Assembly: GCA_028711065.1 (NCBI GenBank) | Contig: JAQTSY010000002.1 | Coordinates: forward strand, 73,779 to 137,778 | From: Minisyncoccota bacterium | Lineage (GTDB): Bacteria; Patescibacteriota; Minisyncoccia; Phycocordibacterales; JAQTLZ01 | Direction: 5' to 3' | Length of the DNA stretch: 64,000 bases | In this document: positions 28,093 through 63,725 of the stretch, in pieces | How the letters are laid out: the number at the start of each line of letters is the position of its first letter | How positions within the stretch are numbered: position 1 is the stretch's first letter | Translations under genes and position numbers: made by a program | Notes under the pieces: generated by a model | Seen by the model: only the letters and a program-made list of their open reading frames with translations | Told to the model about the DNA's origin: nothing | Database searches by the model: none

Positions 28093-28189
28093 TTTCGCGA
28101 CGTTCAATCGCTGGAACGACGAGCGCAAGGTGAACGTGAACCGCAACGACAACAGCTGGAATGACAACTGGTGGTTCGCCGGCGTCCGC
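28093..28189 (+). repeat. DGR template repeat (TR), rich in AAC codons
   Basis: See VR. A hairpin CTCTCCTACttttGTAGGAGAG lies downstream. Confidence 0.85.
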
Positions 28190-34158: not shown

Positions 34159-34380
34159 GTTTCTCTTTCATTCAGAAAAAGAAAATCAGCCCGCTTATCG
34201 CGGGCTGATTTTTGAATTGTGGAGATGCCGGGAATCGTTCCTTACAGGAACAGTACCCCCGATGGAGATTTTTTACGTTCGATTACGAACTTAAAAATCT
34301 GCTCATCGGGGCTTCGATTCCCGCACAAAAGCGCCCCGCGCTTTCTCGTCCCACAAATTAAAAACCACCCGAAGGTGGTT

Positions 34381-34533
34381 CTTAATTTGTGGTGACATCC
34401 TAACCTTTGCGCGAACTTTTTTTGAACAACATTCCTAACGAATTCCGCCACGCGCGAGTACGCGCGTCCGCCCTCGACCCCGCCCACTCTCCATGCAAAT
34501 TTTGTTTCGCGCGGATTTCTTTTTTCGGAATGG
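34381..34533. repeat. IR-A left copy (~155 bp; ~96% identical to the reverse complement of 36958-37122), distal boundary of island 1 cargo
   Basis: Direct comparison of the two segments. It contains the internal palindrome ACCCCGCCCAC...GTGGGCGGGGT, the GC palindrome CACGCGCGAGTACGCGCGTC, and the terminal core CTTAATTTGTGG. Confidence 0.85.
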
Positions 34534-34804
34534 GTGGGCGGGGTTTTCGGGACGGACTTTTTCTTTAAGGAAAAAGTAGGCGGAATTCGAATACAATTCG
34601 GTGCCTCGTGCATCATTTTAGCATAGAAACGTCTGTTGTCTTCGGGTGTCCCTTCCGCTTCGCTCCAGAGGCCCCCTCAGACCAACAGACGTTTCTTATT
34701 TGGAGCACGAGGACTCTTGTGATATGTGCTTGCCCACCCAACCCACCGCGCACAAATTCTCGTCGTCTCCAAGAAAAATAGAGACGACTACTCCCTTGCG
34801 AACC

Positions 34805-34836
34805 TGAACGGCTCAAATGGTGGAATTGAGCTGTTA
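34805..34836. repeat. conserved hairpin motif TGAACGGCTCAaATGGTGGAATTGAGCtGTTa (second copy at 53903-53938)
   Basis: About 30/32 identity between the copies. Both sit ~200-270 bp inside the distal cargo IR of the two islands. Confidence 0.7.
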
Positions 34837-34854
34837 GGTTCGTTAGAACAATTT

Positions 34855-35352
34855 CTATTTAACAACTTTGTACACACGCCACTTTCGTCCGCCTCCCATC
34901 TCCTTTTCTGATACAAGAGAAAGATTCGGTTCACTTTTAAATACTTTGATACCTCCTCCGATTTTTTCAGGAAGTACATTTAACACAACCCTATCTATCA
35001 GATCATCTTCTAACGCAGATGTATTCAATGTGGGACCACTAGATACTAAAACGTTCGCCCCTAAAGTAAAAGCCTCTGTGGGAGAATGAGCAATGGTGTA
35101 CATTGGTTTCGATACAAAATGGACATCATCTGTAACTACAACTTTTTTAACATCTAAGTCTTCGAATTCTTTTATCATCTGTCGCGGATATTTCTGAATT
35201 GCCTCGTATGTTTTTCTTCCCGTTACAAATAAATCATGCTCTCTGCATATATCAAGAAAATCATTCCAGACAGTGTCAGGAATAAAATCCTCGTCTCCGT
35301 TTTCTCGAGCGATATACCCATCGGCAGAAACTACATTGTAGAGAGTAACCAT
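34855..35352 (-). CDS. dihydrofolate reductase-like / RibD C-terminal domain family protein
   Basis: 165 aa with the YwjB/RibD_C pattern (VSADGYIA...GRKTYE...VVLNVLP). Confidence 0.6.
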   Translation of the reverse strand: MVTLYNVVSADGYIARENGDEDFIPDTVWNDFLDICREHDLFVTGRKTYEAIQKYPRQMIKEFEDLDVKKVVVTDDVHFVSKPMYTIAHSPTEAFTLGANVLVSSGPTLNTSALEDDLIDRVVLNVLPEKIGGGIKVFKSEPNLSLVSEKEMGGGRKWRVYKVVK

Positions 35353-35364
35353 AATCTTTTGTTT

Positions 35365-35679
35365 CTATTTTAGCCTAACCAAACCAAATTTCTTCCCGTA
35401 TTTTTGTTTCATCCAAAGTCGAGCGTCTTCAATAATTTTGTCTCCATGTTTATTGTCTGGAGCGAGAACAAAGTCCACAGACCAATCTTTCTTTTTTTGT
35501 TTCGGTGTCTTAAGGATAACCAAAAAATCAACGTCCGCAGGACGTTTCTTTTTTGTTGAAAAACTACCCATAACAAACATCTCTGACACCGGCAGATGAA
35601 CATTTTTGAGAACTTTTTGAGTTTCCTTCCAAAGTTCTCTTCTGTATTTTGAATTAAGCAGTTCTTTAGGAATTTTCAT
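35365..35679 (-). CDS. minimal nucleotidyltransferase (Pol-beta superfamily; MNT-like)
   Basis: GSFSTKKKRPADVDFLV matches the GS...DxD NTase motif. 104 aa. Confidence 0.6.
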   Translation of the reverse strand: MKIPKELLNSKYRRELWKETQKVLKNVHLPVSEMFVMGSFSTKKKRPADVDFLVILKTPKQKKKDWSVDFVLAPDNKHGDKIIEDARLWMKQKYGKKFGLVRLK

Positions 35680-35708
35680 ATCAAAACTCTATAGTGTTTT
35701 TTGGTTTT

Positions 35709-36671
35709 TTAGTCAAAGAGATATTCTTTTCTTGCAGGAGCAATCAAGTACGTTTCTATTTCTTCAGGGGTCATAGATACCTTTAGTTTTTGAGACATGT
35801 CGCAGAACTTTCTTTTAAAGTCTTCTAACTTTTGACTTCTCTCCTCTTTGGACAACTTACTTGATACATCCCCCTCCCAAAAGAAAGTTGTTACTTCTCC
35901 TTGGCAGTATTTAAAAAACATAGTATTTAATCTACCTTGGTAATCTGCAGGGAAGAGTTCTGTACTTTCTGGATTCTGTAATAAAAATATAATAAGACTG
36001 TCGCGAGTTTTCGAATGTCCGCTTCCTCCCCGCGAAAAACATTCTCTAATGGCATGCAGAAAAAGTTCTCTCGCCAGATCCGGTCTTTCTATGAGAAGTT
36101 CCTTTGCTTTCTTGCGATCCCAAAGTGCGTGTTGTACGACAAAGACCTTATCTCGTAACTCTTTATTAGATTCGGGCACAGAATTCAGAGCATCTTCAGA
36201 AAAGCTTACTCTTGTTGAGTAAAGGGCCACATTTATTGCGTCTTCCAATGATTTCCCTGTATACCCGTGCAATGAACGATCCATCATTGGAAATCTAAGT
36301 CGAGAAAAGTGTTTAGATTTTTCATCTTCCTTTTTCCGCTCTATTCTTCCAGTAACATAATGGTTCGAAGTTTCTTGGGGAGAACCAATTTCGATAGAAG
36401 ACTCAAGGCCAAATCCACTATATCGCGTAGTTCCATCATCTAAAATTTCTACCGTACCTCCTTGATAAGGGATTGCTTCACCATCTGGTCTATCTGGTAA
36501 CGCTCCACCAATGATTGTTATTTGATTTGGGAATCGAACTTGCTCAATAGTTTCTTTTTTTAGTATTTGTTCTGCCTCTATATAATTTAAAGCCAGACCA
36601 GACTCCATTTTTTGCTGTAGCTTTTCCGCTTCTTCTCGAGCTTTTTCTTCAGTATATTTTTCCATAGTCAT
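35709..36671 (-). CDS. hypothetical 320-aa protein, possibly a HEPN-like partner of the adjacent NTase
   Basis: No recognisable family. It contains an R-x4-H (RELFLH) candidate HEPN motif. It is adjacent and co-directional with the MNT-like gene. Confidence 0.4.
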   Translation of the reverse strand: MTMEKYTEEKAREEAEKLQQKMESGLALNYIEAEQILKKETIEQVRFPNQITIIGGALPDRPDGEAIPYQGGTVEILDDGTTRYSGFGLESSIEIGSPQETSNHYVTGRIERKKEDEKSKHFSRLRFPMMDRSLHGYTGKSLEDAINVALYSTRVSFSEDALNSVPESNKELRDKVFVVQHALWDRKKAKELLIERPDLARELFLHAIRECFSRGGSGHSKTRDSLIIFLLQNPESTELFPADYQGRLNTMFFKYCQGEVTTFFWEGDVSSKLSKEERSQKLEDFKRKFCDMSQKLKVSMTPEEIETYLIAPARKEYLFD

Positions 36672-36677
36672 TTAATT

Positions 36678-36884
36678 TTATCTCACCAACCTGCTTTTGG
36701 AAACCCCGAGCGCATCTGCCAACTTCACAATCGTAGAAAGTGTCGTGTTAATCTTTCCATGCTCAATATTGCTTATATACCCTCGGCTCACGCCGATAAG
36801 CTCCCCAAGCTTTGCTTGGGGCATTTTCTTGGACATTCTTAGCTTTTTTAGGTTTTTGCCAAACTCCAACGCTTCCTTTTTCAT
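36678..36884 (-). CDS. XRE-family helix-turn-helix transcriptional regulator (68 aa)
   Basis: HTH_3 pattern (KLGELIGVSRGYISNIEHG). The listed ORF 36678..37010 extends artifactually into IR-A. The start was reassigned to the internal ATG. Confidence 0.75.
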   Translation of the reverse strand: MKKEALEFGKNLKKLRMSKKMPQAKLGELIGVSRGYISNIEHGKINTTLSTIVKLADALGVSKSRLVR

Positions 36885-36957
36885 TATCAACAGTATAGCA
36901 ATTGTTCTGTTTTGCAAGAATGTTATGATATATAGTAACATTCTATATCGAGCCCTC

Positions 36958-37122
36958 GACCCCGCCCACCCATTCCGAAAAAAGAAACCCGCGCGAAACA
37001 AAACCTGCATGGAGAGTGGGCGGGGTCGAGGGCGGACGCGCGTACTCGCGCGTGGCGGAATTCGTTAGGAATGTTGTTCAAAAAAAGTTCGCGCAAAGGT
37101 TAGGATGTCACCACATATTAAG
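36958..37122. repeat. IR-A right copy (inverted partner of 34381-34533)
   Basis: See IR-A left. Its terminal 12 nt CCACATATTAAG overlap the start of IR-B. Confidence 0.85.
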
Positions 37123-37225
37123 ACTTCCGATTCAGGGAGCAAAAAATTTGAGCGCGCCGAAGGCGCGCGATCTCCGGTGAACCCGCATTCCGCCCTGCGC
37201 CCGCAAGCGAATTCGGAGGGTGGGC
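37111..37225. repeat. IR-B left copy (115 bp, 100% identical to the reverse complement of 38691-38805), immediately upstream of the recombinase start
   Basis: Direct comparison. It contains the GC hairpin GAGCGCGCCGAAGGCGCGCGATC and a GAATTCGG motif. Confidence 0.9.
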
Positions 37226-37276
37226 ATGGGTGCAGAAATGAGACACATACGGATTCTCCTTTTTTCGTAATCTAAA

Positions 37277-38908
37277 ATGAACAAACCAAAATTTTTCTTA
37301 TACGCGCGAAAATCAACGGAGGACGACGATCATCAGATCATGAGTATTGAAGCGCAACTTTTTGAGCTTCGAGAATTCGCGCGTAAAGAAAATCTTGAAA
37401 TTCTGGCTGAATTTCAAGAGTCGAAAAGCGCAAAGAAACCGGGTCGTGAACTTTTTAACGAAATGATGGCCCGCATTGAAACTATGGATGGTGTCGGTAT
37501 TCTCGCATGGCATCCTGACCGACTTGCTCGCAATAGTGTGGACGGCGGACGCATCATTTACGCTGTAGACACGACCAGAATCGTTTCTTTGCGATTTCCG
37601 ACATTTTGGTTTGAACCCACTCCGCAAGGGAAATTTATGTTGCAAGTGGCGTTCGGCCAGTCCAAATATTATTCAGACAATCTCGTTGAGAATATTAACC
37701 GAGGTATCCGCCAAAAAGTGAGAAGAGGCGAATGGCTGGTGAAAGCTCCGTTTGGCTATGTGAATAATCCGAGAACGAGGAATATCGAACCTGACGCGGT
37801 GAAATCACGCATTGTGGTCGGAGCTTTCAAAGAGTACGCCACTGGCAAGCATTGTTTCGGATCACTTTCGGCATTTTTGGCGGATAGAGGTGCTGTGACG
37901 AGATACGGAACGCCACTTGCCAAAGCTTCCGTCTCGATTATGTTGTCGAACAAAGCATATCTCGGTCTGGTCAAACATCGCGGTGAATTTTTCGCCGGAA
38001 GCTTTGCGCCAATTCTTTCTCTCGACTTGTTTGAAGCCGTACAGAAGATTTTGCGAGAACGAGCAAAGCCCCGCAAAACAAAAACCGGTCACAATTTTCC
38101 TTTCACCGGACTTTTTCGTTGCGGAGAATGTGGAAGCATGATTACCGCTCAATGGTGCACCGGAGAACATGGCGGACGCTATCGCTACTATCGCTGTACG
38201 AAAAAGAAAGGAAAATGTGAACAGAAGTATTTGCGGGAGGATGCGCTCGCCTCGCAGGTGAAAGCACGGCTCAAACAAGTCGGACTTCCCGACGACTGGA
38301 CCGACTTTATGCTAAACAAAGTGCAAGATTGGGAGAAAGTGGAAAAAGTGTCGTCGGGAAGCCTTGTCGAGCGGATTAAGGAGAATGAGCGAGAGACGGA
38401 ACAAAAGCTCGGGAAGCTCGTCACTTTGTTTCTGGACGGCGATATTCCCAAAGAAAATTATCTCGCCAAGAAAAACGAGCTTTTGAAAGAAAAGGTGTCT
38501 CTCGCTCAAAAAATGGATTCCGCCCGACAAGAGAGAAAGAATTGGGTCGAACCCTTGCGAGAGTGGATTTTAGATACGAAAAAAGCCACGCAATTGGCTT
38601 CGTCCGATAATTTTGAAGAAATGCGGACATTTCTTCGCCGAGTCGGAACGAACCCAAAATTGCGGGACAAATCCGTCTCTGTCTCATTTTGCCCACCCTC
38701 CGAATTCGCTTGCGGGCGCAGGGCGGAATGCGGGTTCACCGGAGATCGCGCGCCTTCGGCGCGCTCAAATTTTTTGCTCCCTGAATCGGAAGTCTTAATA
38801 TGTGGAGACGGCGGGAATCGAACCCGCGTGCAAGAGGTTTCCTTGAATGGTTCTACAAAGGGTAGTTTATTTTTTCCGCTTTCGCGGATTTCGAACTCGT
38901 CCGTCTAG
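37277..38908 (+). CDS. large serine recombinase (resolvase/invertase catalytic domain + recombinase domain + Zn-ribbon + coiled coil). The ORF has no stop before IR-B and reads through it into the tmRNA gene; the functional C-terminus is probably near 38690
   Basis: N-terminal YARKSTEDDDHQIMSIEAQ (catalytic Ser) and C-terminal CGECG...C zinc ribbon. ~50% identity to the second recombinase at 46645-48201. Confidence 0.85.
   Translation: MNKPKFFLYARKSTEDDDHQIMSIEAQLFELREFARKENLEILAEFQESKSAKKPGRELFNEMMARIETMDGVGILAWHPDRLARNSVDGGRIIYAVDTTRIVSLRFPTFWFEPTPQGKFMLQVAFGQSKYYSDNLVENINRGIRQKVRRGEWLVKAPFGYVNNPRTRNIEPDAVKSRIVVGAFKEYATGKHCFGSLSAFLADRGAVTRYGTPLAKASVSIMLSNKAYLGLVKHRGEFFAGSFAPILSLDLFEAVQKILRERAKPRKTKTGHNFPFTGLFRCGECGSMITAQWCTGEHGGRYRYYRCTKKKGKCEQKYLREDALASQVKARLKQVGLPDDWTDFMLNKVQDWEKVEKVSSGSLVERIKENERETEQKLGKLVTLFLDGDIPKENYLAKKNELLKEKVSLAQKMDSARQERKNWVEPLREWILDTKKATQLASSDNFEEMRTFLRRVGTNPKLRDKSVSVSFCPPSEFACGRRAECGFTGDRAPSARSNFLLPESEVLICGDGGNRTRVQEVSLNGSTKGSLFFPLSRISNSSV
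38691..38805. repeat. IR-B right copy, abutting and overlapping by 5 nt the 3' end of the tmRNA gene
   Basis: See IR-B left. The terminal core CTTAATATGTGG includes tmRNA 3'-terminal nucleotides. Confidence 0.9.
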
Positions 38909-39197
38909 AATAAACAAAACCGAACGTGTTCTAGTCTCATTGGCTTTTGGCCTTCAAGTACGGCTCGAGACTGTCCATACTTTATCCCGAAAAATGACAC
39001 TTCACATTCCTCTATCGGGAAGTCGAAGAGGGAAGCGTCGCTTAGGCTATCGCGTAAGCGAAATCGTTTGCTCCAAAATATGGAGAAGCGATCTTTTGTG
39101 CAACTTTTGCAGTTGACTTTTGAAGCGGATTTAAGAGTCACTTCAGCTCTCCTTTGCACATACGAAGGGGAATCTCCTGTCTATGCCGATCATCCCC
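38803..39197 (-). ncRNA. ssrA: tmRNA (ssrA), predicted tag peptide ANDFAYAIA
   Basis: 5' end GGGGAUGAUCGGCAUAGACAGG resembles the tmRNA 5' consensus. The tRNA-like 3' end is GGUUCGAUUCCCGCCGUCUCCACA. The 5' GGGGAUG pairs with 3' CGUCUCC (two G-U pairs). The internal ORF GCA AAC GAT TTC GCT TAC GCG ATA GCC TAA begins with the characteristic AND. smpB lies immediately upstream on the same strand. Confidence 0.75.
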
Positions 39198-42376: not shown

Positions 42377-42453
42377 TGGTCCACCCTCCACGATTCGAAC
42401 GTGGGACCCCCGAGGTATAAGCTCGGTGCTCTAACCAGCTGAGCTAAGGGTGG
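42377..42453 (-). tRNA. tRNA-Ile with anticodon UAU (encoded CCA; discriminator A)
   Basis: Manual cloverleaf fold: acceptor CCACCCU/AGGGUGG, anticodon stem CCGAG/CUCGG with loop CUUAUAC, T-loop UUCGAAU. Confidence 0.7.
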
Positions 42454-46166: not shown

Positions 46167-46389
46167 TACCGATGCCCGAGTGGAGAAATCTGCTCGGGTG
46201 TTTTTTTTGCGGAGGAAGTGAAAATTTCGGTCGTTACACGACCAGTAAAGGCGAGATTCGGTCACAAGTATTTTTCTGCTGAAAAATCTCGCGACCCCGA
46301 CTCAGCACCCATGCGCTTCCGTCTTTCGAATCTCACTTCCTCTCGCAACGTCAAACGAAAAAAGATTTTCAATCTTTTGTCGGTCATTG

Positions 46390-46476
46390 CGGAGGAAGTG
46401 AGATTCGAACTCACGGAGCCAATTAAGGCTCGGCGGTTTAGTAAACCGCTGGTTTAAACCACTCACCCATTCCTCC
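46390..46476 (-). tRNA. class-II (long variable arm) tRNA-like gene with a non-canonical anticodon loop (UUACUAA, apparent anticodon ACU); possibly tRNA-Ser-derived or a pseudo-tRNA
   Basis: Manual fold: acceptor GGAGGAA/UUCCUCC, 3-bp D stem, D-loop GAGUGGUUUAA, variable arm GAGCC..GGCUC, T-loop UUCGAAU, discriminator G. No standard Ser or Leu anticodon was found. Confidence 0.5.
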
Positions 46477-46609: not shown

Positions 46610-46698
46610 GGAGACGTGTCAGAGTGGTCTAACGTACCTCTTTGCTAAAGAGGCAGGGGCTTTAAACCCCCTCGAGGGTTCGAATCCCTCCGTCTCCG
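46610..46698 (+). tRNA. tRNA-Ser (anticodon GCU), class II
   Basis: Acceptor GGAGACG/CGUCUCC, anticodon stem-loop CCUCU-UUGCUAA-AGAGG, long variable arm, T-loop UUCGAAU, discriminator G. Confidence 0.8.
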
Positions 46699-48201
46699 CA
46701 TTTGAGAGAATTCGGGTTCCGCGAAAAAAATCGGGTCGGCGCGAAGCGCCGATGTGTGGAGTGAACCCCCGCCAAAACAAAACCCGCCAAGGATTTTCCA
46801 CGCTCCGCGGGGCTCAAAAAGTACGGTTCGATCTTTGATTTCAAAGTTCGAACCGACTTTTTTCAACAAATGAAGTTTTTCTTCATTTGTTGCATCGTTT
46901 GCCAATTCCATATTGGATTTGAGCCACTGGTCCGTAAGTTCGAACCGATTATTCGCTTTTTGCTGAAATGCCGATAATTTCTCTTTGAGAAGCTGTTTAG
47001 CGTTAACCAGTGCGTTCTTGGCATCGCGATATTCTTCGAGCGACAACGCACTCTCAAGATACGCGCTCATCAGCTTCTCAATCTTGGAATCCACAAGAGA
47101 AATTTCGGCTTTCACGCTATCCGCAAAAAGCACACTCGATTGATTTTCTGATTGCCGATCTTTTTCATTCTCGGCAATCATCCACTCTAGCCAATCGAGT
47201 GGCAGAGAAACTTTTTTGATCTTCTCCTGAATTTGGGAAGTGATGAACTCCTCGCGGACATATTTTTGCAAACAAGGATTTTTCCGTTTGGTACAGCGGA
47301 GATAGTTATGACCTTTCTGGGTTTCGGTTGTGATGAAGCAACCGCATTCTCCGCAACGGAAAAATCCTCGGTATAAATATTCCTTTAGACCGCGAGCTTT
47401 CGGCTTGCTCTTTCTTTTCATCACTTCCTGGCAAGTATCAAAAAGTTTCTTTGAAATAATCGGTTCGTGCTTACCCTCGTATATTTCACCACCGAAGCGA
47501 ATCAGTCCGCAGAAAATCGGATTTTTCAGCATATTGTGAATGTCCGAAATGGAAAGTTCATGCTCCTTTCTCGTTTTCAGTCCAAGTAGAGCTGTGATGT
47601 CCCTAACTTGTCGGAGCGTATATTTGCCACTGGAGTAGGCCTCGAACGCTTTTGCAATACACGGCGCACGCTCGGCATCGGGGAAGATAGTTTTTGTCTC
47701 GGTGTCGTTCACAAATCCGAGCGGCGCATTTCGAGGCCAAATACCTTCCTTCAATTTCTGACGATGGCCGCGTTTAATATTCTCCGACAAGTTATCTACA
47801 TAGTACTTGGACTGACTAAAAGCGATTGAGAGCATGAATTTTCCTTGCGGTGTCGGATCAAACCAAAAAGTACTAAATTTCAAATCTAGAATCACTTTGG
47901 TATCAACGAGGTAGATGATTTTTCCTCCATCTACCGAGTTTCTCGCAAGTCGATCAGGATGCCATGCCAAAATACCGGACGCTTCTCCGTGTTCCATTCG
48001 TCCTATCATTTCGTTGAACACGGGACGGCCCGGTATTTTGGCTGTCTGCTTTTCGACAAAGACATCGACAATTTCAATCCGCTCTTTCAACGCTAATTCT
48101 TTCAATTCCGAAAGCTGGTCGGCAATACTGCGGACTTGTCTGTCTTTGTCGTCTGTCGACTTGCGAGTATAGATGAAGAACTTTTTGGTTTGAGAATTCA
48201 T
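46645..48201 (-). CDS. large serine recombinase (paralogue of 37277-38908). The ORF reads through IRrec into tRNA-Ser; the functional C-terminus is probably near 46816
   Basis: N-terminal YTRKSTDDKDRQVRSIADQ and C-terminal CGECG zinc ribbon. It is transcribed toward the tRNA 3' end, exactly as in island 1. Confidence 0.85.
   Translation of the reverse strand: MNSQTKKFFIYTRKSTDDKDRQVRSIADQLSELKELALKERIEIVDVFVEKQTAKIPGRPVFNEMIGRMEHGEASGILAWHPDRLARNSVDGGKIIYLVDTKVILDLKFSTFWFDPTPQGKFMLSIAFSQSKYYVDNLSENIKRGHRQKLKEGIWPRNAPLGFVNDTETKTIFPDAERAPCIAKAFEAYSSGKYTLRQVRDITALLGLKTRKEHELSISDIHNMLKNPIFCGLIRFGGEIYEGKHEPIISKKLFDTCQEVMKRKSKPKARGLKEYLYRGFFRCGECGCFITTETQKGHNYLRCTKRKNPCLQKYVREEFITSQIQEKIKKVSLPLDWLEWMIAENEKDRQSENQSSVLFADSVKAEISLVDSKIEKLMSAYLESALSLEEYRDAKNALVNAKQLLKEKLSAFQQKANNRFELTDQWLKSNMELANDATNEEKLHLLKKVGSNFEIKDRTVLFEPRGAWKILGGFCFGGGSLHTSALRADPIFFAEPEFSQMRRRRDSNPRGGLKPLPL
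46696..46815. repeat. IRrec copy a (120 bp; 119/120 identical to the reverse complement of 48220-48339), starting at the last 3 nt of tRNA-Ser
   Basis: Direct comparison. It contains GC hairpin GGCGCGAAGCGCC and GAATTCGGG. It is homologous in layout and ~60% in sequence to IR-B of island 1. Confidence 0.9.
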
Positions 48202-48219
48202 ATTTGTATTGGCAACGAC

Positions 48220-48339
48220 GAGCCCCGCGGAGCGTGGAAAATCCTTGGCGGGTTTTGTTTTGGCGGGGGTTCACTCCACATATCGGCGCTTCGCGCCGAC
48301 CCGATTTTTTTCGCGGAACCCGAATTCTCTCAAATGCGG
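48220..48339. repeat. IRrec copy b (inverted), directly upstream of the recombinase start
   Basis: See copy a. Confidence 0.9.
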
Positions 48340-48565
48340 TGTTTATTGAACGAAGTTCGAAACTATTTCGCAGAAAACCCCGATGACTGCATCTAATCGC
48401 ACGCGCCGCGTGCGTGGTGACTTGAAACTCCAAACTACGCTCCACCAATGAATTCCGCCCCAACGCCGAGGAGTACCTCGGCGTTGCCCCCACCGGAGAA
48501 ATCTCTCTTTGCTGGATTGAGTCGCGCAGGATTTTTTCAAATGGAAAAGGGATTTTCCGGTGGGG
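48337..48565. repeat. IR2 copy a (229 bp; 100% identical to the reverse complement of 54100-54328), proximal boundary of island 2 cargo
   Basis: Direct comparison. It has the internal palindrome CCCACCGGAGAAATCTC...GAGATTTCTCCGGTGGG, the GC palindrome CACGCACGCGGCGCGTGCG and GAATTCATTGG. Spurious identical ORFs are listed in both copies. Confidence 0.9.
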
Positions 48566-48629
48566 GGGTCAAACATGTTAATTATATTACACTATTGTAA
48601 AACAATGCAATGACACTTATCATCAAAAG

Positions 48630-48848
48630 ATGTCTAAACTCCCCGTTTCGAAGCAATTTGGGCAAAATCTAAAAAGACTACGCCTCAAAAAGAGCTTATC
48701 GCAGGGCGATATTTCTAGGAGACTGGACGTAGACCGCTCCTATGTAAGTAATTTGGAAAATGGTAGAATGAATCCGACACTTTCGACGATTAAAAAATTG
48801 GCGAAGGCTTTAAATACTTCAGCAGATAAGTTGCTGAAACGAGTATAA
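48630..48848 (+). CDS. XRE-family HTH transcriptional regulator (72 aa)
   Basis: HTH_3 pattern (SQGDISRRLDVDRSYVSNLENG). Its position is the same as the XRE gene of island 1, the first gene inside the cargo IR. Confidence 0.75.
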   Translation: MSKLPVSKQFGQNLKRLRLKKSLSQGDISRRLDVDRSYVSNLENGRMNPTLSTIKKLAKALNTSADKLLKRV

Positions 48849-48855
48849 ATTTATT

Positions 48856-49497
48856 ATGAAAAATTTTCTAAAAATAACTGCACCTATTCTTGTGGTTGCC
48901 CTTTGTATAATCGCATACTTCGTCTACACGATTTATTATTTGCCACAAAAACGAGCAACTGAGACTGTCCAAAAAGCAATAGATTTTGAATGTGATTTTA
49001 ATTCTGTTGCCAAAAACACAGTTCAGGAGTCATTGGGTGCTTACCACACTATTTCTTTTTCTTATCCTTCCTGTTTTAAACCAAGTACAATGCCTAACGA
49101 ACCGTACGGTTACAGACACACTTTTGACAGAGCAGATTCAACTCGAAGCTATCAACCTCCTTATCTCACTGTTGAAATAGGATTTGTCGTGCCAGATATT
49201 AGGACAGGCGGGAACAATTATGCAGTTTTCCCAAAGACTGTTCTGAAGAAAACGACTTACATGGGTATTCCTGCTGAATATGTCACATATAAAAACCCGG
49301 AGTGTTTAAGTAATTCTGCAAACTGCTCGGCGTACTCCACAGATATAATAGCTTTTCGATTAGAAAAGGATTTTGACGTTGAAAGAGCTGTAAATTCAGA
49401 CCCTGATTTTGTAATTGCTATTCATACTTCCCCAAAAGACACAAAAGATTATCTTCCTTTATTGGAAAGTGTAGTTTCGACATTAGTCATCAAATAA
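48856..49497 (+). CDS. hypothetical membrane-anchored or secreted protein
   Basis: N-terminal TM segment. No family was recognised. Confidence 0.4.
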   Translation: MKNFLKITAPILVVALCIIAYFVYTIYYLPQKRATETVQKAIDFECDFNSVAKNTVQESLGAYHTISFSYPSCFKPSTMPNEPYGYRHTFDRADSTRSYQPPYLTVEIGFVVPDIRTGGNNYAVFPKTVLKKTTYMGIPAEYVTYKNPECLSNSANCSAYSTDIIAFRLEKDFDVERAVNSDPDFVIAIHTSPKDTKDYLPLLESVVSTLVIK

Positions 49498-49498
49498 A

Positions 49499-50464
49499 AT
49501 GAAATATTTTCTTCCCATTTTAGTTGTTATCTTAATTATTGTTGGTCTTTATTATTACTACTTCAATGCTGGCCATATTGTAAGTTCATTAAAAAAAGTT
49601 GACACAGTGTCAATTCCGGCTGAGTTCATTCCAAAACAAGCGAACTGGGATGAATACCCGGGTGCAGTCAGAGGAATTTCTCCAAGTGGGAAATATGATC
49701 TTTCAATTCTGCCTCCTTCAGAGCAAAAAGATTCTCAAAATGTTTCATTTCGACTCATTGATCTAAAAAATCAATCAAAAGAAAAACAAATTGCTGTGGC
49801 TGGACTTGGACCAATACCAACCAATACAGGTTTCGACGTGGAGGTGTCTTTCCAATGGATAAATGATTCTACTGTGCTTATCTACAAACGCATGCCTTTC
49901 GCGGCTTGGTATCTGAATGTTGAAACTGGAAAGTCTCATATAATTTTCTCGGCAGAAGATGGAAGGCAGGGACTTTACAATTACAGTCAAACCGGTCAAG
50001 CTCTTTGGTATACATTGAGTGGCAAACTTCACAGATTCGACTTTCTATCTGATTCCGACACTATAATATCTGGTTATTCTGAAGCAAGTGGTACACCAAA
50101 TCAGTTGATTTTATCCAATCGAGGCGATAAATTCCTAAAAGTTGTAACTAATAGCGCATTTGTGGTTGATGCAAGTAGTGGTCAGGAAGAATTTATCTTT
50201 TCAGATCCACGTTTTCATGGAATTGAGAAACATCTATTCCAAGCATGGTCAGAAAACGACAAACGAATTAACCTGCAGTATCCTTTCGTGTACGATCTTG
50301 AACATCACAAATCCATTGATTTGAAGGATTCATATGCTGAGCTCTCAATAAATTTAGGACAGAAATGGTATGGAGATGATGCTCTCGTCGTTCACAACTC
50401 TCGAGATGGGAGTTGGTACTTATTGAATATCTTTGATAAGACATACAAAAGGATCGTGCAATAA
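49499..50464 (+). CDS. hypothetical membrane-anchored protein (possibly beta-propeller-like)
   Basis: N-terminal TM. 1-nt gap from the previous gene. Confidence 0.4.
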   Translation: MKYFLPILVVILIIVGLYYYYFNAGHIVSSLKKVDTVSIPAEFIPKQANWDEYPGAVRGISPSGKYDLSILPPSEQKDSQNVSFRLIDLKNQSKEKQIAVAGLGPIPTNTGFDVEVSFQWINDSTVLIYKRMPFAAWYLNVETGKSHIIFSAEDGRQGLYNYSQTGQALWYTLSGKLHRFDFLSDSDTIISGYSEASGTPNQLILSNRGDKFLKVVTNSAFVVDASSGQEEFIFSDPRFHGIEKHLFQAWSENDKRINLQYPFVYDLEHHKSIDLKDSYAELSINLGQKWYGDDALVVHNSRDGSWYLLNIFDKTYKRIVQ

Positions 50465-50488
50465 GTCCCAATGTGTTAATATAAAATC

Positions 50489-50713
50489 ATGTTTAGTCTT
50501 ATATTCCTAATAATTCCGATTCTATTCTCGTTTCTGCACATATATTATGCAGAAAAGGGTAGAAAAAATCCTCTAGAAGGGCAGAATAAAGCGTTTCAAG
50601 CCGCGACTGCTTTTGTTGATGTCGTACTTGCACTCTCTGTAGGGTTAATCACGTTTAGCGGCATGTTTTTTTATCACCTTATTCTTTATCCGATTCATTG
50701 TAATATGGAATAA
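50489..50713 (+). CDS. small hypothetical membrane protein (2 TM)
   Basis: ORF only. Confidence 0.3.
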   Translation: MFSLIFLIIPILFSFLHIYYAEKGRKNPLEGQNKAFQAATAFVDVVLALSVGLITFSGMFFYHLILYPIHCNME

Positions 50714-50715
50714 TC

Positions 50716-50907
50716 ATGAATTCGTCCGCAAAATTTTTTAGTGCGCTTTTAAAAGGAGTAATAATCCCCCTTGCTCTTTTTTGCGGAATTTATTGGCTTG
50801 ATAAATACACTCTTGGTATCGGCCAAATTTCTATATATGGATTCGTAGGCATTCCCGCAATTACAGTAATGATTCTTTTCTATTATTTTTTGAGGAAATC
50901 CTATTAG
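50716..50907 (+). CDS. small hypothetical membrane protein (2 TM)
   Basis: ORF only. Confidence 0.3.
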   Translation: MNSSAKFFSALLKGVIIPLALFCGIYWLDKYTLGIGQISIYGFVGIPAITVMILFYYFLRKSY

Positions 50908-50909
50908 GG

Positions 50910-51776
50910 TTAGGCTGCCAAAAGTAAGGCAAAAAGAAGAATTAAAAACACTCTAGGAATTTGTTTCCAAAGTGTTTTTTGTTTTGACAATAAAACTGGG
51001 TACAAAAAACTGATGCAATAAAGTGTCCCCGCAAGAATAATCAGGAAATTGAATGGGGTACGAATATACAATTTGGCCAGAAAGCTTAGACTTAAAAGAC
51101 CAATGATCGCAAGCGAGCTAGAGATAATAAGTATTTTCTTACTCCCAAGCAGGGACAATGGCGTTATCTTTTTATATTGAGTATCGCCTCGTACGTCTTT
51201 AAAGTCTTTCAGAAGTACTTTCGATATTCCAAGACTCAACAAAGCACCGAATAAGAGTATTGCATCCAACCTTGGTTTTGATCCTGTAGTAAGAAAAAAG
51301 CCACTCCAAAATGGAATAAAGTAATATGCAAGAATCAGCAGAAAAGTCGAAAACCAACCTTTTCTGGACAGTTGTACCTTAGGATGTGAATAAAAAATAC
51401 CAAGAAGAATAATCAGTGAAGTTCCAATTATCGATATTATCCCACTACTTATACTAGCTAGAATCGCGCAAACTGCTGAGCTGATGGCAAATACAAGAGC
51501 ATCCTTTTGAGATAATTTACCTGAAACCAGAGGTCGATTTGGCTCATTGATTCGATCAATATCTTGGTCGTAAATATCATTCATTACATTTCCAAAACTG
51601 AATGCCAAGAGAAGGCCAATACTTGCCGGAAGCCAAAGATTAAGGGAAGAATGAGATTTATTCGCCCAATAATTTCCCATATAGAAAGTCAGAAGAATAC
51701 CAGTCAATAATGCTGGCCTCATGAGCTCTATGTATGATTGCGTAATCTCACTTATTTTTCTCGATCTTAACAGCAT
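50910..51776 (-). CDS. UbiA-family aromatic/isoprenoid prenyltransferase
   Basis: NDIYDQDIDRINEPNRPL (NDxxDxxxD motif) in a 288-aa polytopic protein. Confidence 0.75.
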   Translation of the reverse strand: MLLRSRKISEITQSYIELMRPALLTGILLTFYMGNYWANKSHSSLNLWLPASIGLLLAFSFGNVMNDIYDQDIDRINEPNRPLVSGKLSQKDALVFAISSAVCAILASISSGIISIIGTSLIILLGIFYSHPKVQLSRKGWFSTFLLILAYYFIPFWSGFFLTTGSKPRLDAILLFGALLSLGISKVLLKDFKDVRGDTQYKKITPLSLLGSKKILIISSSLAIIGLLSLSFLAKLYIRTPFNFLIILAGTLYCISFLYPVLLSKQKTLWKQIPRVFLILLFALLLAA

Positions 51777-51894
51777 AAATTAGTTCTAAGTTCCATCTAA
51801 TTGCTTCTAAAACTAGAGTTATTTTCTTAGGCTATTATGACCTTTAGATTTAAGCTATAAACAAGTTGCTCCTAATTTCTTCTAATGTATTACA

Positions 51895-53319
51895 CTAAAA
51901 GTTTGCTTCATAGTAGCTATTTCGTGATTCACCTACCAAATGCAGAAGTTTCATCTCCTGCATTTTTTTAAGATCATAATTGATTGTTTGTCGAGGTACA
52001 TCCTCCATAATCTTCTCACACTCCTTTGCTGTTATTTTTTTGTTCTCGACAAGGTGATTCCAGATCATTACTTGTCTTTCGTTCAATCCACTAAGCTCAT
52101 TACCCATCAAAATGACCTTAAAACTGTTAGTCGTATTCTTGAAAATTGGTGGCAATAGTTTCCACTCTTTCATATTATTGAAAACAATATCAATTCCTCG
52201 TCCATATTCCTCAAGATAGTCTAATTCTTTTAATCTTGCTGCAATAATCTCGTTACGACTCATTTGAGCATCTTTTATATTTTCAACAGTAACCCCCGGC
52301 GGGAGACAACCCGGATTGAATATCTCAATTCGATCTTCAAAGAGATTCACTTGAGTATAGGTTTCCGTAATTTTGTAATCTCGGTGTATAACAGCATTCG
52401 CCACTATCTCTCGAATAGCTTTCTCGGGATATTCATATCTTTCAACTCTTTTTGTTCCAACTATCTTGGCACTTTTACGTATATTTCGGAGAATAAATTT
52501 CTGTATTGTCTCAATTTGAGTATCTAACGTTCCATCTACATCTACTGAATCAATAATATCTGTGGCTACGTTTGATCCTTCGTATTTAACACATCGAACA
52601 ATATATCTACTGAAATTTTGTTTATCTTGTGGTCTGTTTTTAGCAAAGATAAGAAACCCTGCCACAGTAGGAGATTTGTTGCCATCAAAATCGTCAGCTA
52701 TGCCAAGATTTTTCAGAAGCTCGAAGTTAATCTCATCTATTGACGCTTCTCTTTTTGTTCGTTTGCCGCTTTGAATTAGTAAATCAAGAACTTTTTCTTT
52801 AGATAGTTCCTCGATTGAAGTACCTTCTGCGCGCAAAGTGTCGAATTTTAGTTTTTTTGAATTTTCGATCAAACTCCGCATTTCTTCGTCTGTCATTTTT
52901 CGATCTGTATTACCATCTCGAATGCGGGCACCGTTTGGCATTCCTGCTGGTTTGTAGTAGCAAGGTTTAAACTGTTCAGGACACTCCGGAACGTATATTG
53001 CCAGAATATTTTTACCCTTTATCTCTAAAATATGGTATTCCGGTCTGATAGTTACACTCATTTCATTACTGACAACATTGCTAAAGTTTTCTTGTAGTGC
53101 AGCTATATTTTCAACCCCAATAATTTCGAATTTTTTGTTTCCGTTTTCGATAACCCCAAATGCGATAATTCCACCACCGGGCGCGTGTGAAAATGACGAG
53201 ATGCTTTCCCATGCTTTTCGTGGTACTCCGCTCCGCCCATCTTTGAATTCAACTTTTGGAGTTTCAGAGTTATGTTTTATGGCCTCCTCAATAAATTTCA
53301 TTACTTCCTTTTTTTCCAT
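51895..53319 (-). CDS. AlbA_2 (Schlafen-like) + HATPase_c_4 + C-terminal winged-helix protein (often annotated as a RecG-like putative transcriptional regulator)
   Basis: The N-terminal AlbA_2-like region and a C-terminal HTH (QTINYDLKKMQEMKLL) are typical of this architecture. Confidence 0.6.
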   Translation of the reverse strand: MEKKEVMKFIEEAIKHNSETPKVEFKDGRSGVPRKAWESISSFSHAPGGGIIAFGVIENGNKKFEIIGVENIAALQENFSNVVSNEMSVTIRPEYHILEIKGKNILAIYVPECPEQFKPCYYKPAGMPNGARIRDGNTDRKMTDEEMRSLIENSKKLKFDTLRAEGTSIEELSKEKVLDLLIQSGKRTKREASIDEINFELLKNLGIADDFDGNKSPTVAGFLIFAKNRPQDKQNFSRYIVRCVKYEGSNVATDIIDSVDVDGTLDTQIETIQKFILRNIRKSAKIVGTKRVERYEYPEKAIREIVANAVIHRDYKITETYTQVNLFEDRIEIFNPGCLPPGVTVENIKDAQMSRNEIIAARLKELDYLEEYGRGIDIVFNNMKEWKLLPPIFKNTTNSFKVILMGNELSGLNERQVMIWNHLVENKKITAKECEKIMEDVPRQTINYDLKKMQEMKLLHLVGESRNSYYEANF

Positions 53320-53412
53320 TTCTCAATTTTAGCACTTTGTTGAAACTTAAAATAGATGGAGGCAGAGTTTTAATTAAAGAAACACTTTTTCAACTCGTAC
53401 TAAAATAACCCC

Positions 53413-53808
53413 ATGCCCCCAGACGAAACCACGACTCCAGAACCTGTTGCCCCCGGCCCCGAAACGCCAGTTTCGGGCGATTCCCCAGAACCCCCAGAAA
53501 CCACCCCTCCCGAAGAATCAAGCCCCCAAGCACCCCCTGAGGCCCCAGAAGCCCCTAGAAGCGACGGTAATTTAGGAGCGGTCATGGACACAGCTCCTAA
53601 AACCGAGCCCTTTCTTTCAAGGGAGCCCGCCACGCTTCCCGAATTCGCGTGGCGGGAAATCGTGCGCGCACGGTGGGTGGGGCAAGCACATACAAAATTG
53701 AGTCTCGGGCTCCTCGGGCATTTTCCGCGACGGGCTTTTTACAATAATGAGCGCCGACCCGAACGAAGAGAAGAAACTTTGGTAGCGAAAGCGACACCAC
53801 GAACATGA
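53413..53808 (+). CDS. Pro/Glu/Thr-rich hypothetical ORF inside a ~60% GC patch (53400-54060); coding status doubtful
   Basis: ORF with a compositional anomaly. Both strands have overlapping ORFs. Confidence 0.2.
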   Translation: MPPDETTTPEPVAPGPETPVSGDSPEPPETTPPEESSPQAPPEAPEAPRSDGNLGAVMDTAPKTEPFLSREPATLPEFAWREIVRARWVGQAHTKLSLGLLGHFPRRAFYNNERRPERREETLVAKATPRT

Positions 53809-53902
53809 AGATGAAAACGAGCAAGGGGGTTGTGCGAGGGTGTGAAAACAACCCGACGCTGGGGGGAGGATTCCTTCCTCCCCCCAAAGGGAGCGTGCAT
53901 GG

Positions 53903-53938
53903 CTGAACGGCTCATATGGTGGAATTGAGCCGTTCAGC
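53903..53938. repeat. conserved hairpin motif CTGAACGGCTCATATGGTGGAATTGAGCCGTTCAGC (perfect 11-bp stem), second copy of 34805-34836
   Basis: See the first copy. Confidence 0.7.
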
Positions 53939-54099
53939 TTCTGCACGCACCAACACATCTAGGCGCGAGTAGCCCTAGCGGAAATGCCCGAGGCGGATGC
54001 CGAGTGGTGAACCCGACGGACAAGTACCACAGAAGGTCAGATATGATAAAATAAGCCCGAGATTCCGAATTGAATTCCGCCTTCCAGTTTTTACTGGAA

Positions 54100-54328
54100 C
54101 CCCACCGGAAAATCCCTTTTCCATTTGAAAAAATCCTGCGCGACTCAATCCAGCAAAGAGAGATTTCTCCGGTGGGGGCAACGCCGAGGTACTCCTCGGC
54201 GTTGGGGCGGAATTCATTGGTGGAGCGTAGTTTGGAGTTTCAAGTCACCACGCACGCGGCGCGTGCGATTAGATGCAGTCATCGGGGTTTTCTGCGAAAT
54301 AGTTTCGAACTTCGTTCAATAAACACCG
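54100..54328. repeat. IR2 copy b (inverted partner of 48337-48565), distal boundary of island 2; flanked by a 14-bp direct repeat ATATGATAAAATAA (54041-54054 and 54338-54351)
   Basis: Direct comparison. Confidence 0.9.
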
Positions 54329-54355
54329 CCGCTGTAAATATGATAAAATAATCTC

Positions 54356-54772
54356 ATGTCCATCCTCAAAGAATTCAAACAATTTTTGCTTCGCGGGAAT
54401 GTTGTTGACCTTGCAGTTGGAGTTGTTGTCGGTGCAGCTTTCGGAACCGTTGTCTCTGCACTGGTGAAAGATATTCTCACTCCGTTCATCTCTGCGATCG
54501 CTAAAGTGCCAGATTTTGCCGGGCTTGCTTTCACGCTGAACGGCAGCAAGTTTCTGTACGGCGATTTCCTGAACGCCCTCATTTCATTTATCCTTGTCGC
54601 CGCTGCAATTTTCTTTTTCATTATCAAACCGATGAACCTACTCATTGCTCGAAGTAAAAAGGGTCCGCCGGCTGACCCGACAACAAAAAAATGCCCGGAA
54701 TGTTTGAGCGAAATTCCACTCGAAGCAAAACGATGTTCGCATTGCACCCAGACGATCGTGCCCGGGCTCTAA
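54356..54772 (+). CDS. mscL: large-conductance mechanosensitive channel MscL (with a C-terminal CxxC...CxxC zinc-ribbon tail)
   Basis: N-terminal MSILKEFKQFLLRGNVVDLAVGVVVGAAF is a classic MscL TM1 match. Confidence 0.85.
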   Translation: MSILKEFKQFLLRGNVVDLAVGVVVGAAFGTVVSALVKDILTPFISAIAKVPDFAGLAFTLNGSKFLYGDFLNALISFILVAAAIFFFIIKPMNLLIARSKKGPPADPTTKKCPECLSEIPLEAKRCSHCTQTIVPGL

Positions 54773-63593: not shown

Positions 63594-63725
63594 TCTCAAA
63601 TCGTACAAGAAGTTTTTCAAAAACACCGCTTTGGCGGTGTTTTTGTTATCAACATCTCCGCTCTGGTCTGTTTTCATTTTGGATTCTATACTAACGGTAG
63701 TATTTTCTCCCAAACAATGTTTTAT

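Follow-up and report, generated by a model that had tools for sequence, protein, structure and literature searches.

The window analyzed here is a 64,000-nucleotide (nt) stretch of a Minisyncoccota bacterium genome (assembly GCA_028711065.1, contig JAQTSY010000002.1, positions 73,779 to 137,778), and the element under study, island 2, lies in it beside a tRNA-Ser(GCU) gene. Starting from the tRNA, the island consists of a 120-nt inverted repeat around the gene of a large serine recombinase (LSR), followed by a 230-nt inverted repeat around 5.5 kb of low-GC cargo (Table 1). The arms of the first repeat, 99% complementary in an inverted-repeat search, are called a and a' here, and those of the second, 100% complementary, b and b'; R and C denote the recombinase and cargo segments that they enclose. 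Repeats of this length and near-perfect identity rule out a chance origin. On sequence grounds, the junctions mark island 2 as an integrated LSR element inserted by exchange at a short core, with its recombinase gene split from its native end in the common state.

The tRNA-Ser island and its sister at the tmRNA gene

The cargo of island 2 has a GC content of 0.36 to 0.38, compared with about 0.44 around the island. An earlier note, drawn up by a model from the sequence alone, had laid out this locus under the names IRrec (here the a arms) and IR2 (the b arms), and all the coordinates that it gave hold; the repeat search gives IR2 as 230 nt at 100% identity. The trinucleotide that it reported at three junctions is real and is best written as a 4-nt core, CCGC (46696-46699, 54326-54329 and, as GCGG, 48336-48339).

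The recombinase gene does read toward the tRNA, as that note had it. Its product and the LSR of a second island in the window, island 1, are 42% identical, and both contain PF00239, PF07508 and PF13408 above cut-off. The conserved part of the island 2 gene covers 46816-48201. Its last 57 codons run through arm a and then through the tRNA gene in antisense (ending ..RRRRDSNPRGGLKPLPL-stop), with 40 residues of this tail (EPRGAW...) encoded by the minus strand of arm a. Named protein families matched from a distance: the best NCBIfam models were CcrB (1.5e-29) and XisF (3.7e-25), far below their cut-offs (103 vs 900 bits), solved structures gave remote matches with E values of 1e-7 to 1e-5, and the IS607 profile matched at E=2.7e-4. 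An exact-sequence look-up of the window LSR returned no record. Within the cargo, the protein with AlbA_2 and HATPase_c_4 domains may have a defence-related role.

Island 1, located at the tmRNA gene, is a mirror-image sister of island 2. The homology proposed by the earlier note between IRrec and its island 1 counterpart, IR-B, is borne out by 79 matches in 135 alignment columns, with a score of 20 against -5.5 +/- 4.3 for shuffles (about 6 standard deviations). The shared layout proposed for IR2 and IR-A survives in part: GC palindromes and GAATTC are present in both, whereas their sequence similarity is marginal (a score of 2.5, equal to the best of 200 shuffles). In arm b, one GC palindrome follows right after the detached stop codon described below, and a second palindrome is 11 bp long.

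Table 1. Positions of the features of island 2, its flanks and island 1 in the window
Feature	Position	Strand	Basis or remark
tRNA-Ser(GCU), integration target	46610..46699	+	ARAGORN, Rfam tRNA; last 4 nt, CCGC (46696-46699), form the core common to tRNA and element
J1, read as attL (tRNA/a)	core 46696-46699	+	junction alignment
Arm a (outer IRrec)	46696..46815	+	inverted repeat; profile match E=8e-26; 8-bp GC hairpin 46736-46752
LSR gene, integrated state, 518 aa	46645..48201	-	Pfam Resolvase, Recombinase, Zn_ribbon_recom; reads toward tRNA
Arm a' (inner IRrec)	48220..48339	-	upstream of LSR start; 119/120 nt identical to arm a
J2 core GCGG (a'/b)	48336..48339		other strand is b'-CCGC-a, intact attP-like, inverted relative to J1 and J3
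Arm b (inner IR2)	48336..48565	+	inverted repeat; 49-nt profile; palindromes 48398-48414 and 48461-48486
Detached LSR 3' end CLLNEVRNYFAENPDDCI and stop TAA (48394-48396)	48340..48396	+	within open reading frame (ORF) 48136..48396
XRE/HTH_3 regulator	48630..48848	+	Pfam; PADLOC Control_protein; divergent from LSR; resembles restriction-modification control proteins
Cargo: two membrane-anchored unknowns (213, 321 aa) and two small hydrophobic ORFs	48856..50907	+	
Cargo: UbiA-family prenyltransferase	50910..51776	-	Pfam PF01040, E=1.5e-34
Cargo: Schlafen AlbA_2 and HATPase_c_4 protein	51895..53319	-	matches parts of PADLOC pAgo / Argonaute-associated models
Conserved non-coding block, two strong hairpins	53850..54015		blastn, alignment, consensus fold; inside outer b' arm
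Arm b' (outer IR2)	54100..54329	-	core CCGC 54326-54329 and flank form J3, read as attR (b'/flank)
Chromosomal flank: MscL channel gene	54356..54772	+	Pfam PF01741; start 26 nt past the element
Island 1, mirror-image sister of island 2	34380..38809		adjoins tmRNA (38802-39197, -)
Island 1 outer b arm	34380-34544		
Island 1 XRE, in cargo	36678-37010		
Island 1 inner b arm	36959-37123		
Island 1 detached LSR end ILTFARTFFEQHS-stop	37065-37106	-	
Island 1 a' arm	37107-37226		
Island 1 LSR	37277..38908		42% identical to island 2 LSR
Island 1 a arm	38690-38809		

Outside the outer end of island 1, at a distance of 140 nt, lies a displaced 20-nt tmRNA 3' end, CGATTCCCGGCATCTCCACA (34221-34240), followed by a terminator hairpin of its own (34195-34212, minus-strand reading). 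Its pairing with the 5' end of the tmRNA (GGGGATG) is better than that of the current 3' end, and the tmRNA of L005, one of the loci compared below, ends in a similar sequence. The displaced end seems to be the trace of an older insertion with a T-loop crossover, like those of Dehalococcoides, that replaced the tmRNA end before island 1.

ARAGORN also places a tRNA-Ser with anticodon ACT (46389-46476, minus strand) 130 nt from tRNA-Ser(GCT) and divergent from it; this pair is conserved in L001, L002, L005, L008 and L030. Serine tRNAs with A34 are uncommon, and this one may require modification. ARAGORN further called a tRNA-Ile (anticodon TAT) at 42377-42453 (minus strand). Elsewhere in the window, degenerate tandem coding repeats of ~246 nt occupy positions 1-771, a 104-nt direct repeat (27640-28196) sits inside a GC-rich kilobase (GC 0.55 at 27-28 kb), and a type IV pilin-like N-terminus occurs at 63093-63812 in two copies 636 nt apart.

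Recurrence across CPR genomes

Searching one genome per species gave 67 loci, nearly all of them in metagenome-assembled genomes of the candidate phyla radiation (CPR). Loci and contigs compared carry L-numbers, and the counts over loci come from scripted self-BLAST and ARAGORN. More than 7,000 relatives of the window LSR were found at E<=1e-20, and identities of 75-80% span several CPR phyla. The best 120 of them are 73-79% identical to it and are labeled Paceibacteria, Minisyncoccia, Shapirobacteria and Liptonbacteria; an R-K-S motif is invariant in the LSR alignments. In a viral collection, a single-protein search gave no match to the LSR, and an alignment search gave four members of the family, none informative.

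The arrangement seen in island 2 recurs in these loci. Inverted repeats of 60-190 nt, mostly 98-100% identical, surround the LSR gene in 29 of the 34 loci with both sides present. In 43 of 48 loci the LSR gene is directly followed by a tRNA or tmRNA gene of the opposite strand, which usually overlaps the outer arm by 3-8 nt; overlaps of 3-9 nt were seen at the junctions of other loci. A second repeat pair (90-434 nt) abuts the first in 16 of the 20 loci with enough upstream sequence. The common order is tRNA, repeat, LSR reading toward the tRNA, repeat, second repeat, cargo, second repeat. Targets comprise tRNAs for Ser (four anticodons), Asp, Lys, Gln, Leu, Tyr, Arg, Phe and Val as well as tmRNA. 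The mobile-element family postulated in the earlier note is thus real, since the same order is found at no fewer than 10 different tRNAs and at the tmRNA, and mining of CPR genomes, which the note had proposed, located the recombinase-repeat-tRNA/tmRNA arrangement in dozens of independent assemblies.

Absence of the arrangement from other genomes, one refutation named in that note, is thereby excluded. The other was misassembly, and inverted repeats could in principle come from mis-joining or from collapse of variants: repeats of 120-430 nt confuse short-read assemblies, and many relatives are on 1.7-2.5-kb contigs that end inside repeats. However, the dozens of independent assemblies in which the arrangement recurs were made with different assemblers, include contigs of up to 0.9 Mb, and are joined by a complete 876-kb chromosome (OY969557.1, L028) that carries the layout including the second pair. 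Decayed copies with frameshifted LSR genes and arms only 91-95% identical (L056, L005, L032) also speak against an artefact, the probability of which is next to nil. A practical consequence of the long perfect repeats is that short-read CPR assemblies frequently break at such loci; many LSR relatives are on contigs of 1.4-2.5 kb or lie no more than ~350 nt from a contig end.

The cargo of relatives includes EcoRI-type and type I restriction-modification systems as well as NUDIX-like enzymes, transporters and surface proteins. Cargo differs from element to element, also between close relatives of one LSR, and judging by these annotations the cargo of the family is variable and often defence-related. 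The XRE regulator, which the earlier note had counted as part of the backbone, is frequent but not universal. It was rejected as a universal backbone gene or directionality factor, as a helix-turn-helix (HTH) protein comes first after arm b in some loci only.

Three further observations concern the variety of these elements. The conserved block of ~170 nt inside the outer b' arm (Table 1) is also present in L005 (1502-1670), L034 (4668-4834), L035 (2359-2479), L032 (4037-4083) and L053 (189-236), with hairpins GGGGAGAGG..CCTCTCCCC and AACGGCTCA..TGAGCCGTT and the invariant stretch GTAGCCCTAGCGGAAAT. Against Rfam, neither the block nor the arms came near a gathering score, and a permissive scan gave two weak hits far below threshold; the block could be an RNA, an origin or a binding platform. 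In L094, an IMG/VR contig of 4598 nt whose LSR has 45% identity, the partner of a 62-nt arm lies 2.8 kb upstream of the gene and not directly before it, so in some lineages other sequence may accompany the recombinase between the a arms. In L017 (10001-13375), a divergent pair of genes, tRNA-Ser(CGA) and tRNA-Glu(TTC), lies between two facing elements from different LSR subfamilies, each inserted at the 3' end of its own tRNA.

Junction structure and the recombinase reading frame

With the tRNA (t) on the left and the chromosomal flank (f) on the right, J1 joins t to a, J2, read on the other strand, joins b' to a, and J3 joins b' to f. The cores of J1 and J3 are in direct orientation and that of J2 is inverted. 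In each of 17 elements, all three junctions have the same core. Every locus examined has the b' motif TTTCGAACTTTGTCCAAnAnACA/CCGC directly next to arm a, including loci for which BLAST found no distal partner, and an intact inverted b'/a site lies between LSR and cargo in every locus. The tRNA is always joined to arm a and never to arm b.

These three junctions stand to each other as attL (B-P'), attP (P-P') and attR (P-B') do, so the two repeat pairs amount to one ~350-nt repeat present twice in inverted orientation. The locus is best read as having one copy of this repeat intact between LSR and cargo, with the other split at the core by integration into attL and attR. Both repeat pairs of the modular design seen by the earlier note do recur; nevertheless, they are better understood as one inverted, duplicated attachment region than as independent modules.

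The attL and attR sites are hybrids with a short shared core, CCGC (4 nt) in island 2 and 17 nt in island 1. In island 1 the core (J1 GTCTCCACATATT, J2 GTCACCACATATT, J3 GTCACCACAAATT) has two mismatches, and its chimeric forms fit an exchange between attP (GTCA..TATT) and target (GTCT..AATT), which places the crossover in CCACA. Chimeric attL/attR cores, the at least 10 target tRNAs plus tmRNA, and the differing low-GC cargo together show integration events. The far flanks of island 1 and of L047 open with an intrinsic-terminator hairpin, a sequence normally expected 3' of a tmRNA or tRNA, and so look like the original downstream region.

A second feature shared by element and target is the sequence TTCGAA. 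In two subfamilies, whose cores are CCGC and GCAC, its distance from the core, counted from its first base, is 22 nt in b' and 17 nt in the tRNAs; in island 2 it belongs to the first ~25 nt of arm b, a P-type half-site. The shift between b' and the tmRNA is 6 nt in island 1. For the A118 integrase, the zinc-ribbon motif is 5 bp nearer the center in attB than in attP (PMC3783163), and the 5-nt shift between b' and the tRNAs matches this spacing. In this respect the b' arm mimics the T-loop of a tRNA.

The crossover falls within the LSR gene. The LSR ORF, both in the window and in nearly all relatives, has no stop after the conserved part and continues through exactly 40 codons of arm a into the antisense of the tRNA, producing tails of variable length (e.g., ..RRRRDSNPRG..). 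Reading from a' across the core into b gives, in contrast, R-C-L-L-N-E-V-R-N-Y-F-A-E-N-P-D-D-C-I-stop (48337-48396). This detached end comes into frame with the LSR, by way of an a arm, only through a flip of the segment or excision of the element.

The detached end is conserved as a peptide. Each of the 40 unique b arms codes for R-C/Y-x-L-D/N-K/E-V/I-R-x-Y/F-F-E-x-N-P.., the first stop falling at codon 16-20, and subfamilies that are 45-60% identical keep L-x-x-V-R-T/N-[YFH]-F, a motif also present in island 1. In the tail frame, synonymous and non-synonymous codon differences number 2160:4021 (35%), compared with 886:5393 (14%) and 1076:5058 (18%) in the other frames. Entropy at codon positions 1, 2 and 3 is 0.53, 0.39 and 0.75, the third being the most variable. 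The same test gave a weak coding signal for arm a (0.77/0.75/0.86), and we make no claim for the 40 residues that it encodes. In an AlphaFold model of a full-length member, the a-encoded residues are disordered, the b-encoded end is helical, and two long helices span 335-431; a fold search from this model was dropped, the mean predicted local distance difference test (pLDDT) score of 63 being too poor.

Since both the tail peptide and its stop are conserved in the b arms, the selected form of the LSR is the gene followed by a and the start of b. It occurs only where the LSR 3' end faces a b arm. We are confident of the structural reading as a whole, that is, of a duplicated attP, a gene that spans the crossover and the states observed.

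Arm a contains an 8-bp GC hairpin that is 95.6% paired, with 6 of 8 pairs compensatory over 20 variants, a pattern that none of 500 shuffles reached. The same pattern would be expected of a symmetric protein-binding site. Followed by a T-run in the window, the hairpin was scored there as a terminator that points outward from the gene, but conservation does not extend to the T-run.

The junctions also bear on whether R and C are two adjacent transposon-like units, an autonomous R with 120-nt terminal inverted repeats and a non-autonomous cargo cassette with 230-nt ones, mobilized in trans through separate circles, each with a palindromic joint. Each segment is indeed bounded by its own near-perfect inverted repeat, R and C units alternate in arrays, close relatives of one LSR carry different cargo, and one contig (L089, described below) has R with tRNA-type sequence on both sides and no b arm. 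However, the cores at the two ends of R, and likewise of C, are inverted, so that a serine recombinase would invert these segments and not excise them. Moreover, the tRNA is always joined to a and never to b, a is always joined to b' at the inner junction, and the LSR frame runs from a into b, which ties both units into one gene. Separate mobility of R and C was rejected on the polarity of the cores, and the two-unit arrangement is very unlikely.

Integration, inversion and related systems

The explanation that we consider best overall, and probably correct, is that the family consists of LSR-driven, site-specific integrative elements of CPR bacteria that target the extreme 3' end of tRNA and tmRNA genes and retain an inverted attP. 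We infer a circular free form, as well as the functional effects of the tail swap and of inversion discussed below. The circle would carry b'-CCGC-a twice in inverted orientation, separating R from C. Recombination of one copy with a tRNA end (t-CCGC-f) would yield tRNA/a - R - a'/b - C - b'/flank. The abutting repeat pairs and the single core at three junctions are accounted for, because attL, an intact inverted attP and attR arise from such a recombination.

Because the crossover is inside the LSR frame, integration via the attP copy downstream of the gene would swap the conserved C-terminal end for tRNA-antisense read-through; this is the common state (~90%), with an altered enzyme tail. 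The rare state, with a complete enzyme, would result from integration via the upstream copy or from R flipping between its a arms. In the spare copy the missing gene end stays next to the gene, where R inversion, excision or a tandem neighbor could re-join it. Two other intermediates were considered and rejected. A single-stranded DNA dumbbell, in which a:a' and b:b' fold to a duplex attP, failed on paper, as its exchange with attB would cap the chromosome with loops; a linear or hairpin-telomere form found no a'/a or b'/b palindromic joints in any locus.

Both orientations of R occur, at about 9:1. Among the 120 best homologues, at least 82 have a tRNA-antisense tail and 11 a native, b-type one. 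In L114, tRNA-Ser(UGA)/a is followed by an LSR pointing away from the tRNA and then by a'/b with the full-length tail; its arms are 85% identical, which excludes assembly ambiguity. The left junction of L039 is like that of L114, and four short contigs (L116, L069, L076 and L082) have the native tail in the order LSR3'-a'/b-XRE.

Long perfect inverted repeats around both segments, cores inverted as inversion needs, and the two R orientations (L114, L039, L116) would also be expected of a resident phase-variation system, Hin- or shufflon-like, in which the LSR acts as invertase of its own gene and of the cargo; short-read contigs, moreover, often break at the repeats. Yet the same backbone stands at 10 or more tRNAs and the tmRNA with differing foreign cargo and chimeric attL/attR cores, about 90% of loci share one orientation, and the enzyme is a large serine recombinase and not a small one of the Hin type. 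Programmed inversion as the whole explanation is unlikely. Inversion and mobility are not mutually exclusive, and the integrative-element explanation includes inversion as one step.

Elements are also found in tandem. In L078 (two LSRs, 80% identical), L011 and L080, an LSR reads into the b' arm of its neighbor, and in L084 two tandem elements have a tRNA-like spacer between them. Such spacers, ~175 nt long, are repeated (L008 1888-2080 and 5473-5660; L084 4157-4332); they start after a core and end in a pseudo tRNA-Ser 3' end (e.g., GACCGAATCCCACCGTCTCCGC) or a degenerate tRNA-like gene. The tRNA-like end of the spacer serves as the insertion site of the next element.

One LSR of 543 aa is encoded identically on nine contigs. 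Eight of them have b1'/a at the inner junction, and the ninth, L089, has a tRNA-Ser and a host gene in place of b1', with the break at CCGCC (compared with L084). This is the outcome expected if attP at J2 had recombined with attB on another tRNA, and it is suggestive only.

Arrays and this exchange of a tRNA for b' imply that attP-type junctions recombine further, which would suit an inner attP kept as a landing pad where further elements and tRNA sites recombine with the island. Another role for the inner attP would be that of an operator, bound by the LSR to repress both its own promoter and the divergent cargo promoter; in either case the gene end would be restored by excision only, as proposed for DsiB in Dehalococcoides. 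J2 does lie exactly between the divergent LSR and XRE/cargo genes, and the ORF over attL is shared with Dehalococcoides islands, for which no inverted copy has been reported (PMC3146451). On the other side, an operator needs ~50 bp and not 350 bp of perfect identity, and a flipped, full-length configuration exists beside a tRNA (L114). This alternative, which is not cleanly separable from the best explanation at the level of sequence, appears rather unlikely.

If the integrative-element explanation is followed further, the tail swap might down-regulate or otherwise change the enzyme once the element is inserted. Inversion, by host homologous recombination or by the LSR acting at the inverted cores, would be a way back to the complete enzyme and to further movement. 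If a complete enzyme kept recombining and an altered one did not, elements would accumulate in the locked state, which would account for the 9:1 bias; the long identical arms would serve as the substrate for occasional unlocking by homologous recombination, and ordinary gene conversion between repeats of such length could maintain their identity. We regard the role of the spare attP copy as an unlocking switch as a tentative proposal. More doubtful still is the full version, a self-locking recombinase with a built-in key, in which insertion would remove the C-terminal helix, shutting off or re-programming recombination, and the spare attP, kept identical over 100-430 nt, would let the gene be flipped back to the full enzyme by homologous recombination or by the LSR.

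Several points weigh against these proposals. Genome and metagenome scans recovered neither an excised circle nor an orthologous empty site: the MscL-side flank of island 2 had no counterpart in any compared locus, and the element-free tmRNA of L005 has different flanks. A gapped pattern for the excised form (b' motif, core, arm a, LSR 3' end) had no match among the genome loci; in metagenomes it matched 16 contigs, all with tandem or flipped junctions and none with circular ends or terminal direct repeats. The L089 junction, taken from a multi-k short-read assembly, may be a chimera, and the second LSR gene of L084 is not annotated on the record, although tblastn finds it intact. The structure model is poor overall, with a pLDDT of 53-68 for the tail helix. 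The tail peptide overlaps a DNA half-site (VRN/VRT is encoded by GTTCGAAC), so its conservation could in part be at the DNA level. In some members, arm a has the hairpin and T-run upstream of the core, and transcription might stop there, short of the tail. The inverted cores would permit inversion by the LSR in chemical terms, but to our knowledge canonical LSRs do not recombine attL with attP, and inversion of R by the LSR would be unexpected from known enzymes. The other route for flipping R, homologous recombination, is an assumption. Finally, frequent neutral inversion would predict about equal orientations, and a 9:1 ratio would therefore need selection or a ratchet.

The closest described system is that of the ssrA islands of Dehalococcoides, in which DsiB, a CcrB-like LSR of ~540 aa, is encoded at the island edge beside the tmRNA gene on the opposite strand (McMurdie et al. 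2011, PMC3146451). The dsiB ORF always crosses attL and stops outside the island, and the authors proposed that a complete gene exists on the circle or beside an adjacent island only (PMC3146451). The two systems share an LSR at attL directed toward the tmRNA or tRNA, an ORF over attL, tandem arrays and variable cargo, whereas neither inverted repeats nor an inner attP were reported for Dehalococcoides (PMC3146451). Insertion there is in the T-loop with a 20-bp direct repeat, compared with a 4-17-nt core at the extreme 3' end in the CPR element, and the target is ssrA, compared with many tRNAs plus tmRNA. The Dehalococcoides islands have a six-gene module (dsiB, dsiA, recF-like, parB, mom and an RNA-polymerase-domain protein), whereas the CPR backbone consists of the LSR only; in Pfam and NCBIfam scans covering every island ORF, the LSR was the one gene of that module to appear. 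The conserved peptide and stop in the b arms provide direct sequence support, in a different lineage, for the complete-on-circle idea proposed for DsiB.

LSRs of phages and integrative and conjugative elements (A118/LI, phiC31, Bxb1, SPbeta SprA) have the same resolvase, recombinase, zinc-ribbon and coiled-coil parts, a short core, hybrid attL/attR sites and a recognition motif 5 bp nearer the center in attB than in attP. They differ in that no attP is kept after integration and the int gene does not span attP, whereas the CPR element retains an attP and its gene spans one. Their directionality is set by a separate recombination directionality factor; no conserved small gene accompanies the LSR among the neighborhoods compared here. 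The nearest named families by profile, SCCmec CcrAB and XisF, target rlmH and fdxN and not tRNA genes, and have no long inverted repeats around the recombinase. LSRs of the CcrAB/XisF type carry out both insertion and excision of non-phage islands.

Other systems resemble the CPR element in single respects. Hin and Gin segments also have a serine recombinase gene within inverted repeats with inverted cores, and are found in both orientations. Hin and Gin are non-integrative invertases of ~190 aa, with 26-bp sites and an enhancer bound by Fis; the CPR enzyme, in contrast, is an LSR with 460+ conserved residues and arms of 100-190 nt, inserted at tRNA ends with foreign cargo. The yeast 2-micron plasmid has FLP/FRT in two 599-bp inverted repeats, two unique segments and two flip isomers. 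It is similar in layout only, to what is proposed for the CPR free form, and differs in being a eukaryotic plasmid with a tyrosine recombinase whose inversion serves copy-number amplification and not integration. In mycobacteriophage integration-dependent immunity and in SSV1, attP lies in a coding region, and integration alters a C-terminus or splits a protein, changing its activity or stability. Those systems use tyrosine integrases, affect a repressor or int, and keep no spare or inverted attP copy.

Tycheposons of Prochlorococcus, 27 of 937 of which have an LSR (bioRxiv 10.1101/2020.12.28.424599), are likewise small cargo islands at tRNA/tmRNA genes of a streamlined bacterium and are often arrayed, but most use a tyrosine recombinase, many have replication genes, and no nested inverted repeats have been described for them. 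In transposons and insertion sequences with serine transposases (Tn4451/Tn5397, IS607), the ends form a circle, specificity is low and tRNA ends are not mimicked. The CPR elements differ from these in that the cores of R and of C are inverted, which precludes simple excision, and in that the target is always a tRNA/tmRNA 3' end.

The chemistry and the niche of these elements are known; the architecture of nested repeats, the spare end of the gene and the scale of the family in CPR bacteria are not. Openly searchable full-text literature, with subscription-only papers outside its reach, held no description of the CPR family or of an integrated LSR element that keeps an inverted attP. A paper on horizontal gene transfer in the CPR describes genomic islands and leaves recombinases, tRNAs and repeats unmentioned. 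The family is thus apparently both very large and undescribed in CPR bacteria.

The CPR, or Patescibacteria, make up a large share of bacterial diversity, and their mobile elements have barely been described. The LSR family, thousands strong, is apparently one of the chief carriers of restriction-modification and other accessory genes in these very small genomes. Its architecture also adds to the biology of serine integrases, with an integrated element that retains an entire attP and a recombinase gene in which the crossover itself falls. Because the enzymes recognize the universally conserved T-arm and 3' end of tRNAs, they are candidates for broad-host insertion tools. If the tail swap does control activity, it would be a natural, state-dependent control without a directionality factor and would be relevant to integrase-based genetic switches. 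Self-locking with a key, if true, would represent a new directional control of serine integration and a source of tRNA-to-tRNA chromosome rearrangements in the CPR, in which a low-frequency flip would re-open excision, array growth and recombination with other tRNA genes.

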